Of a stretch of DNA of 64,000 bases, positions 48,466-49,725 are shown one piece after another. The number at the start of each line of letters is the position of its first letter. The first letter of the stretch is position 1. The position numbers and the translations under genes were made by a program. Source of the DNA: Acutalibacteraceae bacterium. GTDB lineage: Bacteria; Bacillota; Clostridia; Oscillospirales; Acutalibacteraceae. The DNA is taken from contig JAZRMK010000048.1 in assembly GCA_045647525.1 (NCBI GenBank), positions 7,928 through 71,927 on the forward strand, written 5' to 3'. The notes under the pieces were generated by a model. It made no database searches, was not told the origin of the DNA, and saw only the letters and a program-made list of their open reading frames with translations.

Positions 48466-49725
48466 ATGAAAATGAAATATAAACAGCTTTTTGAAAAAGC
48501 ATATTCTCGTTTAAATGAACTTTATGGCGGAGAATATTCTACACCTGACATTACCATTTTGAGTCGCTTCTATCGAGAAAAAATGATTCTTGGCGAGAGT
48601 GATTTTTATATGCGTTACCTTGATTTTCTGAGTAGAGTCAGGGAAACAGCAAATCAAAAAGGCGAGCATATTTTTGTCAGAGGATCAGCGGGATCATCTT
48701 TTATTGCATATCTTTTGGGGGCAACAGATATCAACCCTTTGCCAAGACATGAGTACTGTCCACATTGTCACGCGACTAAATTTATCGGAACCGGCACTCC
48801 ATTTGATAAGGCTCCGATAAGATGCTCTTGCGGAGCAGAGATCGAAACTGACGGTCATAATCTTCCGTTTGAGTCAAACCTTAAAAGTATATTGTCAGAA
48901 CGTATTCAGGTCTGTGTTTCCCACGCATTCTTTGACGAGGCGAAAACTATGATTCGTGACGAATTGTGGGACAAGGCGATTGTCACACTGACAGATGGAG
49001 ATATTTCGCCCACGTGGTTCTGTATTCTCGATAAGGAGACCAATGAGTGTGGCGATTATTCGTTGAATGGGAACCGAGAGATTTTTGCAAACTTTCCAAG
49101 AATTACGCTTGTGCCTAAAAACGCGCTCGACAAATACCGTGAAATTGAAAAGGCTACGGGTTTCAAAATGAAAGATATTGGGTTCAATGAACAAAGTCTT
49201 GCGTTTTTTCATTTTATGGAATTTGATATTGAAGGCGTACCTTACTTCGACAATGACTTTATAAAGGATATTTGGAATACAATAAATCCGCAAAGTTATG
49301 ATGCTCTATTAAAACTTATAGGATTTGCTCATTCGACTAATATTTGGAAGAACAATGCGGAAACACTTTTTAATGAGCATAGACTCTCCCTTCGTGAGAT
49401 TCCGGCATTCAGAGAAGAACTGTACGATATGATCAGTGAGCGTCTGCGCCTACATGGCGTTCGTGATGAAGGATTTGCTTATGAGGTAACAGATAAAGCA
49501 ATGCGAGGCCATTATGCCAAAACCGGAGGCGTTGACGAAGACACGGTGCTTGGTTTGTTAAGCATTGGTTTTGATATGGATTTTGTATTTTTCCTTTCTG
49601 AGATTAACTATATGTTTACGAAAGCAGAGGGAGTTACATATTTGCGTGAAGCGATTGCAATGATGTTTTACAAGATTAAATTTAATAAAGAGTATAATGA
49701 AATTATGTTGGCAAAAGCGGAATGA
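48466..49725 (+). CDS. Stand-alone PolC-core-like protein (C-family polymerase palm/Zn-finger region), predicted catalytically inactive
   Basis: VRGSAGSSFIAYLLGATDINPLPRHEYCPHCHA...IRCSCGAEIETDGHNLPFES parallels PolC GSRGSVGSS.VA...ITEVNPLPPHY.CP.C...CP.CG...KDG.DIPFETF. Later, LIGFAHSTNIWKNNAE and INYMFTKAEGVTY parallel ISGLSHGTDVWLGNAQ and IKYMFPKAHAAAY. The PDIDLNF and LGHDDPT positions are not conserved. Confidence 0.7.
   Translation: MKMKYKQLFEKAYSRLNELYGGEYSTPDITILSRFYREKMILGESDFYMRYLDFLSRVRETANQKGEHIFVRGSAGSSFIAYLLGATDINPLPRHEYCPHCHATKFIGTGTPFDKAPIRCSCGAEIETDGHNLPFESNLKSILSERIQVCVSHAFFDEAKTMIRDELWDKAIVTLTDGDISPTWFCILDKETNECGDYSLNGNREIFANFPRITLVPKNALDKYREIEKATGFKMKDIGFNEQSLAFFHFMEFDIEGVPYFDNDFIKDIWNTINPQSYDALLKLIGFAHSTNIWKNNAETLFNEHRLSLREIPAFREELYDMISERLRLHGVRDEGFAYEVTDKAMRGHYAKTGGVDEDTVLGLLSIGFDMDFVFFLSEINYMFTKAEGVTYLREAIAMMFYKIKFNKEYNEIMLAKAE

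Follow-up and report, generated by a model that had tools for sequence, protein, structure and literature searches.

ImuB is a catalytically dead homologue of the Y-family polymerases and forms part of the ImuA-ImuB-DnaE2 mutasome. For the C family of polymerases, to which PolC belongs, no dead member is described in the bacterial surveys PMC3919608 and PMC12926913 (truncated sequences removed), and full-text literature searches likewise returned none. The gene considered here, called mini-PolC, encodes a much shortened relative of PolC. It lies at 48466..49725 on the + strand of the window, by which is meant the whole stretch of 64,000 nucleotides that was analysed (Acutalibacteraceae bacterium, GenBank assembly GCA_045647525.1, contig JAZRMK010000048.1, positions 7,928 to 71,927 of the forward strand). 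Its product has 419 amino acid residues from the ATG, and an in-frame GTG is found at 48463. Other loci are cited below by L numbers and other proteins by P numbers.

An active C-family polymerase carries a set of domains that includes PHP, the thumb, (HhH)2 and a clamp-binding motif (PMC3919608). The thumb splits the palm at the segment between the catalytic strands, the catalytic DxD of E. faecium PolC is formed by D972 and D974, and residues H1185, Y1274, F1276, H1280 and Y1284 of the same enzyme line the inhibitor and nascent-base-pair pocket (PMC12592400). The histidine of the YMFPKAH helix is the steric gate (PMC8485763).

Compared with this plan, mini-PolC is a pseudo-polymerase. It consists of a PolC core cut down to the N-terminal palm helices, the GS loop, the zinc finger and a palm sheet that has degenerated, together with the fingers as far as the YxFPKAH helix. 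The NCBIfam PolC model PRK00448 matches the protein in two stretches (E=2.4e-35), and E. faecium PolC in the PDB (9qpc_A) matches it with E=2.3e-32, chain residues 853-985 corresponding to query residues 7-139 and 1174-1321 to 256-407. The scores of the curated families are not reached: PRK00448 gives 121.5 bits against an NCBIfam cut-off of 873, and TIGR01405 gives 114.2 bits against 1043. In Pfam, PF07733 (DNA_pol3_alpha) passes its threshold (34.0 against 23.9 bits) with a match that spans only positions 3-109 of the 260 in the profile, while PF17657 (DNA_pol3_finger) falls just under its own (21.7 against 22 bits). An earlier note on this DNA, made by eye, had placed the open reading frame, taken as 420 residues, alongside the PolC segment around the palm. 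The HMMER alignments to PolC reproduce its motifs, among them GSAGSS...NPLP...CPHC...CSCG...DGHNLPFE, FAHSTNIWKNNAE and INYMFTKAEGVTYL.

The two matched stretches cover positions 831-962 and about 1150-1297 of the 1445 in the PolC profile, and identity to PolC is only about 20-30%. The profile hidden Markov model of the mini-PolC family, aligned with PolC of B. velezensis (L012), leaves residues 138-252 unaligned. This region is resolved by a global hhalign comparison of the family with PolC-like sequences (prob 100, E=2e-82). The fingers part, residues 256-408 (49231..49689, + strand), is homologous to PolC 1145-1290 in B. velezensis numbering. An AlphaFold2 (AF2) model built from a 100-sequence alignment is confident (pLDDT 93.7, pTM 0.92). 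Superposition on Geobacillus PolC, which the earlier note had proposed as a check, succeeds with this model: Foldseek ranks PolC of Geobacillus kaustophilus (3f2b_A) first, with E=4.6e-21 and a query-normalised TM of 0.81, followed by E. faecium PolC and then by DnaE-type enzymes at about 1e-7. The PHP, exonuclease, OB, thumb, clamp-binding and HhH parts are all absent. A Pfam scan gives no PHP match, and the protein ends at about position 1297 of the 1445 in the PolC profile, short of the clamp-binding and HhH region.

The loss of the catalytic residues can be followed strand by strand. The strand ERIQVCVS (48898..48921, + strand; strand 146-151 in the model) is the counterpart of the PolC DxD strand PDIDLNFS, a pairing read by eye in the earlier note and confirmed by hhalign. 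Since the two strands pair, R146 and Q148 stand in place of the two catalytic aspartates, which are D966 and D968 in B. velezensis. The strand PRITLVP (49096..49116, + strand; model strand 212-217) is the counterpart of KLDILGH. Here LVPKNAL had been set against LGHDDPT; the strand pairing is right, but the register is off by one residue, because hhalign pairs PRITLVPKNAL with LKLDILGHDDP and so places T214 on the third catalytic Asp. Among 99 stand-alone members of the family, none has Asp at position 146, 148 or 214. Position 146 is R in 30%, Y in 24%, H in 17% and K in 5%, position 148 is Q in 84% and E in 10%, and position 214 is T in 87%. The description of a stand-alone, PolC-derived protein with its zinc finger kept and its catalytic motifs replaced is borne out. 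As judged from these replacements, the two-metal mechanism is beyond mini-PolC.

The thumb has gone as well. A stretch of 467 residues in PolC (824-1290) corresponds to 405 in the query (4-408), a difference of about 62, and about 57 of the missing residues belong to the stretch that links the DxD strand to that of the third Asp, which is the thumb site. In the model, only one helix and three short strands separate the two catalytic strands, so that mini-PolC has no thumb. The earlier estimate of 150-200 deleted palm residues was therefore too high. The deletion amounts to about 60-70 residues and affects mainly the thumb.

Nucleotidyl transfer could in principle persist if other acidic residues had taken over. 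Conserved acids do exist in the family (E67 in 98%, D88 in 94%, E166 in 91%, D222 in 94%), and a few short relatives (P0202, P0267) keep both DxD and the third Asp. However, the conserved acids all lie off the two catalytic strands, E166 is replaced by Tyr in relatives fused to a helix-turn-helix (HTH) domain, and a shorter paralog, micro-PolC, deletes the sheet entirely. Other acidic residues were considered as catalysts and rejected, since no column within residues 137-226 is conserved across the clade. Residual catalysis is very improbable.

Conservation is strong elsewhere in the domain. The sequence RGSAGSS (48679..48699, + strand, from the translation) is the GS loop of a Pol-beta-like palm, RGSVGSS in PolC. 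Its G73, G76 and S78 are found in 98%, 86% and 95% of the family, and both the HTH-fused relatives and the PolC-like proteins keep the loop as well. The zinc-finger insertion HEYCPHC...CSCG (48748..48834, + strand) aligns with CPxC...CPxCG of PolC, and its four cysteines, C98, C101, C120 and C122, are 98-100% conserved in the stand-alone, HTH-fused and PolC-like groups. The sequence YMFTKAE (49609..49629, + strand) is the YMFPKAH finger helix of PolC, as seen from the HMMER alignment and the composition of the family. Residues H289, Y382, F384, H388 and Y392 of the family are the equivalents of E. faecium H1185, Y1274, F1276, H1280 and Y1284. They belong, with the four zinc-finger cysteines, G73, G76, S78, W294, N297, G348 and K386, to the positions conserved in 71-100% of the 99 members. 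The basic pair ahead of G348 is more variable (position 346: R 40%, M 27%, K 10%; position 347: R 57%, K 13%). When the stand-alone and HTH-fused groups are compared, 54 columns show an identity of 80% or more in each. PolC has the same residue at 44 of these 54, and none of them lies within residues 137-226, the catalytic sheet. Across the clade, conservation is strongest in the GS loop, the zinc finger, the SHGT-W-N segment, R/K-G and the Y-x-F-P-K-A-H pocket, while the catalytic sheet is free to vary.

The gene is not a remnant. A homologue search returned 155 proteins, and the best 120 of these range from 100% down to 41% identity and are mostly 404-428 residues long, with a few fragments and one protein of 575 residues. 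Length is kept from 82% down to 41% identity. All homologues that carry a name are called hypothetical protein, except for one JGI entry named DNA polymerase III alpha subunit (gram-positive type). Orthologues give a ratio of nonsynonymous to synonymous substitution (dN/dS) of 0.09-0.15 at a dS of about 1-2, and mini-PolC is under strong purifying selection. A functionless, decaying fragment of a polymerase gene might be expected on an island that holds at least one other gene fragment (a PcfJ-like one) and that lacks most genes of the fuller modules found elsewhere. Yet decay is hardly credible here: over 100 full-length homologues keep the same length down to 41% identity, dN/dS is low over such distances, the fold prediction is confident, and the promoter element and ribosome binding site (RBS) are conserved. 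Pseudogene status was considered and ruled out on the dN/dS, the constant length and the fold.

The mini-PolC domain is found well beyond the free-standing proteins. An exhaustive profile search gives 2503 representative proteins at E<=1e-3, of which 562 reach E<=1e-30. The best 147 matches, from which the family's own three representatives were excluded, fall into four groups. About 40 are free-standing minis of at most 460 residues, and about 43 have an N-terminal XRE HTH, a linker of about 80 residues and the mini-PolC domain with the same C-terminal end. A further 34 have a long N-terminal part, mostly PHP and in some cases DnaB_C or an exonuclease, many of them with PDxDLNF, and 22 are fragments or partial matches. 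In a crude neighbour-joining tree, which carries no support values, all mini forms make up one clade nested among truncated forms that contain PHP. The mini-PolC domains are one clade, found in Clostridia, and occur free-standing on mobile islands, in tandem with a micro paralog, or at the C-terminus of XRE-HTH proteins.

The HTH-fused proteins share with the window protein a thumb-less, C-terminally truncated domain, the four cysteines, the GS loop, YxFPKAH and the loss of the first catalytic Asp. They differ from it in that 55% keep the second Asp and in that they carry the N-terminal HTH and linker. The window protein itself lacks a DNA-binding domain: it begins at family position 1, and a Pfam scan gives no HTH match. 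Examples of the fusion are P0128, P0355, P0326 and P0302 and the proteins of L019, L020 and L022, which have about 472-500 residues and come from Clostridia. P0128 matches HTH_3 with E=1e-14, and P0126 carries FtsK_gamma. A search started from P0128 finds more than 380 HTH-fused clusters, and the only name they are given is helix-turn-helix domain-containing protein. All three HTH-fused relatives whose surroundings were inspected lie among chromosomal housekeeping genes. One has jag on one side and ksgA/gidA on the other, close to dnaA-dnaN, and one has an additional sigma-70 region 2.

The longer relatives are truncated PolC-like proteins of 700-1000 residues (P0184, P0192, P0181 with DnaB_C, P0212 with an exonuclease). 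Their C-terminal end coincides with that of the mini forms, and they score 168-205 bits against the mini family, compared with 131 for canonical PolC. Unlike the mini forms, they keep PHP, and many keep PDxDLNF, which is present in some and absent in others. For this reason, active polymerases of mobile elements are probably among them, and the group may be the evolutionary source of the mini domain. Column-based counts of DxD are unreliable for these long forms because of insertions, and the inspected alignment was used instead. Forms with PHP, palm and fingers include P0184, P0192, P0205, P0233 and P0236 (700-800 residues), and P0181 and P0253 combine DnaB_C, PHP and the polymerase part. Plasmid p3 of Cetobacterium somerae encodes another truncated PolC-like protein, of 914 residues (L013:3768-6512). 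A match on this plasmid that might have been a mini-PolC proved to be part of that protein.

The micro-PolC paralog has 369-377 residues and is about 31% identical to the mini form. It is found at L005:11254-12363, L036:9268-10401 and L035:318-1451, solitary in the last and directly after mini-PolC with overlapping frames in the other two. The immediate succession and the overlap suggest that mini-PolC and micro-PolC form a heterodimer.

On islands, a different regulator-like gene keeps company with mini-PolC. Immediately upstream of it in the window stands a gene for a 728-residue protein (46119..48305, + strand) with a WYL domain and an internalin-like leucine-rich repeat (LRR) part (Pfam WYL 5e-9 and LRR_4 1e-10; PADLOC WYL 4e-19). 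The C-terminal LRR part matches internalins and Roco LRRs, and the architecture is unusual for a WYL protein. Homologues of this WYL-LRR protein, 50-75% identical to it, are found beside mini-PolC elsewhere. Counting the window, the gene is directly upstream in six loci (with L015-L018 and L023), and in L001 and L002 it is one or two genes off. More generally, of 14 informative loci, 12 have a WYL-domain gene within 10 kb of mini-PolC, and in seven the two are adjacent.

Each gene may nevertheless be a transcription unit of its own. A GC-rich, terminator-like hairpin is located just 3' of the WYL-LRR gene (48319..48342, + strand) and is kept in L015-L018. It is followed, upstream of mini-PolC, by a promoter-like element, TATAGCCCAAATTTAACC-N-TATTAT (48366..48412, + strand; repeat family D1), assigned by consensus match only. 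In the form TAGYCCAAATTTAWCC followed by a TATAAT-like hexamer, the element occurs at 42573-42588, 45600-45615 and 48369-48384 (3 observed against 0.31 expected in the window), and a degenerate copy lies near 44839. The element is kept upstream of the mini-PolC orthologues in four other genomes (L015-L018), as is the RBS. The 12-nt core CCAAATTTAWCC has no exact match in other loci, and the aligned upstream regions of L015-L018 show a related TATAGCCCAAA..TTGACC element. An element shared by several island genes suggests that they are co-regulated single-gene cassettes.

Since mini-PolC cannot polymerise, it presumably acts by binding. It is tentatively proposed, with a confidence somewhat short of even, that mini-PolC is a non-catalytic binding, sensor or adaptor module that feeds a transcriptional regulator. 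In this model, the domain would bind, and not turn over, a ligand resembling a nucleotide, the 3' end of a DNA or a partner protein; it is the conservation, throughout the clade, of the non-catalytic active-site motifs of PolC and of the zinc finger that leads to this proposal. A regulator that binds DNA would then receive this state: the HTH-fused relatives would have it in cis, and the window in trans, most plausibly as the adjacent WYL-LRR protein. The outcome would be help in controlling genes of the island or of conflicts between the host and a mobile genetic element (MGE). The repeated attachment to DNA-binding domains and the company of WYL proteins on islands make a sensor or adaptor the best supported model. 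A regulator was among the roles listed in the earlier note, and the XRE-HTH fusions and the six loci with an adjacent WYL-LRR gene lend it indirect support.

A bolder form of the proposal treats the domain as a new class of receptor exapted from a replicase. The pocket for dNTP and primer end would have been kept, and the domain would report the dNTP pool or free 3' ends to transcription. Its signals would be replication stress or incoming or nicked DNA, acting directly in the HTH-fused regulators and through WYL-LRR on the islands, where they might time the expression of counter-defence or establishment genes. This version is doubtful.

Several observations weigh against the sensor or adaptor model. 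Genes with WYL and LRR parts are common on such islands, so their adjacency may be weak evidence, and the immediate neighbours of mini-PolC vary between subclades. The hairpin and the promoter-like element between the WYL-LRR gene and mini-PolC indicate that these do not form a single operon. In the window copy, E388 replaces the steric-gate His of PolC and of 71% of the family. In micro-PolC the central palm sheet is missing entirely, as are the GS glycine and the F and H of the finger motif; with the pocket lost there, the shared function may not need a nucleotide pocket at all. The pocket residues could also be conserved merely as parts of the palm-finger core. Finally, the mechanism is proposed from architecture and conservation.

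In another model, mini-PolC would be a scaffold or adaptor within a machine of several proteins that the element encodes, with no small-molecule ligand. Its partners would be a 333-residue protein, LRR proteins, micro-PolC and WYL-LRR. The first of these belongs to a family of 304-340 residues that is encoded directly upstream of mini-PolC, often with overlapping stop and start codons, in L002, L005, L024, L027 and L036; remnants are found in L001 and L025, and L030 has a homologue too. The 333-residue representative P0391 (L005:9003-10004) gives a confident AF2 model (pLDDT 91.7), with no significant fold match in the PDB (best E=0.17), no sequence match there and no match in Pfam or NCBIfam. 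Some members of this family are fused to a cREC_REC domain or to a DnaA-like ATPase. The coupling of this gene to mini-PolC is what a scaffold would predict, as are the overlapping tandem micro-PolC in L005 and L036, its retention although its pocket residues are lost, and the recurrence of LRR_5 genes in the loci. A 153-residue protein (phrog_5614) is a further recurrent neighbour. In the window, however, tblastn finds neither the 333-residue protein, micro-PolC nor any other partner from these loci except WYL-LRR, and yet mini-PolC is there under purifying selection. The model also leaves unexplained the 93-98% conservation of the GS loop and YxFPKAH, and the chromosomal HTH-fused forms that have no such neighbours. 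A scaffold is rather unlikely.

The wider gene content of the related loci has the flavour of the accessory region of an integrative mobilisable or conjugative element. It includes a DarB-like SNF2 helicase (phrog_10089, E=2.5e-235), a MoxR ATPase with DUF2201, an NAD ligase, an FtsH-like AAA protein, a PARG/NMNAT-like protein, an ADP-ribosylglycohydrolase, a Mob_Pre relaxase, TraX, a reverse transcriptase and UvrD. Where the element is more complete, a conserved block of five genes stands beside mini-PolC (L002:11262-19988, L008:11149-19918). It encodes a DarB-like SNF2 helicase of 1209 residues, a MoxR-type ATPase, a DUF2201 protein resembling VWA proteins and metallopeptidases, a protein of about 190 residues, and an NAD-dependent DNA ligase. 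The protein of about 190 residues is homologous to the product of window positions 44901-45548.

Such surroundings bear on the idea, raised in the earlier note, of a decoy. As a mimic of the host replicase, mini-PolC would soak up an inhibitor made by an MGE or phage, a toxin or a nucleobase-type antibiotic, or would distract a defence sensor. Counter-defence-type genes (the DarB-like helicase, the NAD ligase, the PARG/NMNAT-like protein and the ADP-ribosylglycohydrolase) are abundant in the related loci, and the residues of the PolC inhibitor and nascent-base-pair pocket are conserved as H289, Y382, F384, H388 and Y392. But an identity to PolC of about 20-30% points to an old family that does not track host PolC. 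Known nucleobase inhibitors bind only the DNA-bound state of PolC (PMC12592400), whereas mini-PolC lacks the DNA grips of thumb and HhH. The window copy, moreover, has E at the position of H1280, and the HTH fusions are not predicted by a decoy. It is an unlikely function for the protein.

A related possibility is that mini-PolC blocks replication. Non-productive binding to primer-template ends or to a component of the replisome would stall the host, a phage or the element in a dominant-negative manner. The parts that contact the primer end and the incoming nucleotide in PolC, namely the fingers and the GS loop, are retained. In dnaE, most plasmid-borne substitutions at H760, the steric-gate His, and at its neighbour S759 could not be cloned, for which the authors assumed dominant-negative toxicity (PMC8485763). 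On the other hand, the thumb and the HhH, duplex-binding and clamp-binding regions are absent, the protein is predicted to be acidic (pI 5.3), there is no conserved partner resembling a toxin-antitoxin pair, and the predicted promoter appears to be of an ordinary, sigma-A-like kind. A blocker is quite improbable. The suggestion that the protein binds the clamp finds no support either: a regular-expression search finds no QL[SD]LF-type motif in mini-PolC, nor any of the QLxLF type, and the protein stops before the clamp-binding and HhH region of PolC.

The island itself is evident from base composition. Mini-PolC lies within a stretch of about 10 kb with a GC content of 0.37-0.39, compared with about 0.43-0.47 in the flanks, with the sporulation genes yqfD and spoIIE on either side. 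Its start is marked by tRNA-His and tRNA-Gln (42026-42201; tRNA-Gln at 42127-42201). At this left edge are two direct repeats of 90 nt that are 99% identical (42184-42273 and 42382-42471), the first of which starts inside the 3' end of tRNA-Gln. The repeats look like a duplicated attachment site; no matching copy was seen at the right edge. The low GC and the tRNA-Gln edge with its repeat confirm the accessory island proposed before. The match of a 92-residue open reading frame (43140-43418, + strand) to PcfJ (Pfam E=5e-14) is confined to the C-terminal half of PcfJ. This frame is probably a fragment of a gene, which fits a decayed conjugative or mobilisable element. Downstream of mini-PolC, a 216-residue open reading frame (49845-50495, + strand) has a lipoprotein-like N-terminus and, by eye, four CxxCxGxG motifs like those of the DnaJ zinc finger, with no Pfam match; a strong hairpin follows at 50512-50554.

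The genome matches of the family are metagenome-assembled genomes of Ruminococcus sp., Acutalibacteraceae, Eubacteriales and Clostridia. A survey of homologues in phages, suggested in the earlier note, gave nothing: INPHARED and PLSDB contain no full-length relatives, the matches there being genuine PolC and DnaE genes, IMG/VR holds no family member, and BFVD holds full-size polymerases only. In PHROGs, mini-PolC has a polymerase match of just 22 residues. None of the defence families of PADLOC-DB 2.0 matches it, and only its neighbour matches the WYL models. Pfam and NCBIfam have no entry specific to the mini-PolC family, and NCBIfam has no model specific to the HTH-fused or long groups.

An unnamed clade of dead family-C proteins is thus present in gut Clostridia, with dozens of free-standing clusters at 50% identity and HTH fusions in no smaller number. 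Should the domain prove to bind or sense something, the core of a replicase would have been reused for regulation, and an uncharacterised player would be added to the accessory islands of mobile elements in gut Firmicutes. There is possible relevance for drugs too, as the family keeps residues that line the pocket of PolC-targeting compounds.

Among known systems, PolC (3F2B, 9QPC) is the closest in structure. The two share the N-terminal part of the palm, the GS loop, the zinc finger, palm strands and the fingers. PolC has about 1440 residues against the 419 of mini-PolC, which is without the N-terminal domain, OB, PHP, exonuclease, thumb, clamp-binding and HhH parts. The genes differ in setting as well, mini-PolC being found on a mobile island and polC in a core locus of the proS-polC-rimP-nusA type. 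Measured against an active C-family polymerase, mini-PolC has the homology of palm and fingers, but not the catalytic aspartates, the domain set or the curated score.

The earlier note had compared the protein with ImuB. As a dead polymerase the analogy stands, but the beta-clamp-binding motif and the DnaE2 and ImuA partners it would imply are missing: no DnaE2, ImuA or RecA-like neighbour is found among the loci examined, about 20 with the window included. The mini-PolC clade is the first group of pseudo-polymerases that can be found for family C in the literature searched. Like ImuB, mini-PolC has a polymerase fold without the catalytic carboxylates and is presumed to act by binding. ImuB, however, is a family Y protein of an SOS cassette, whereas mini-PolC belongs to family C and occurs in the context of mobile islands and regulation.

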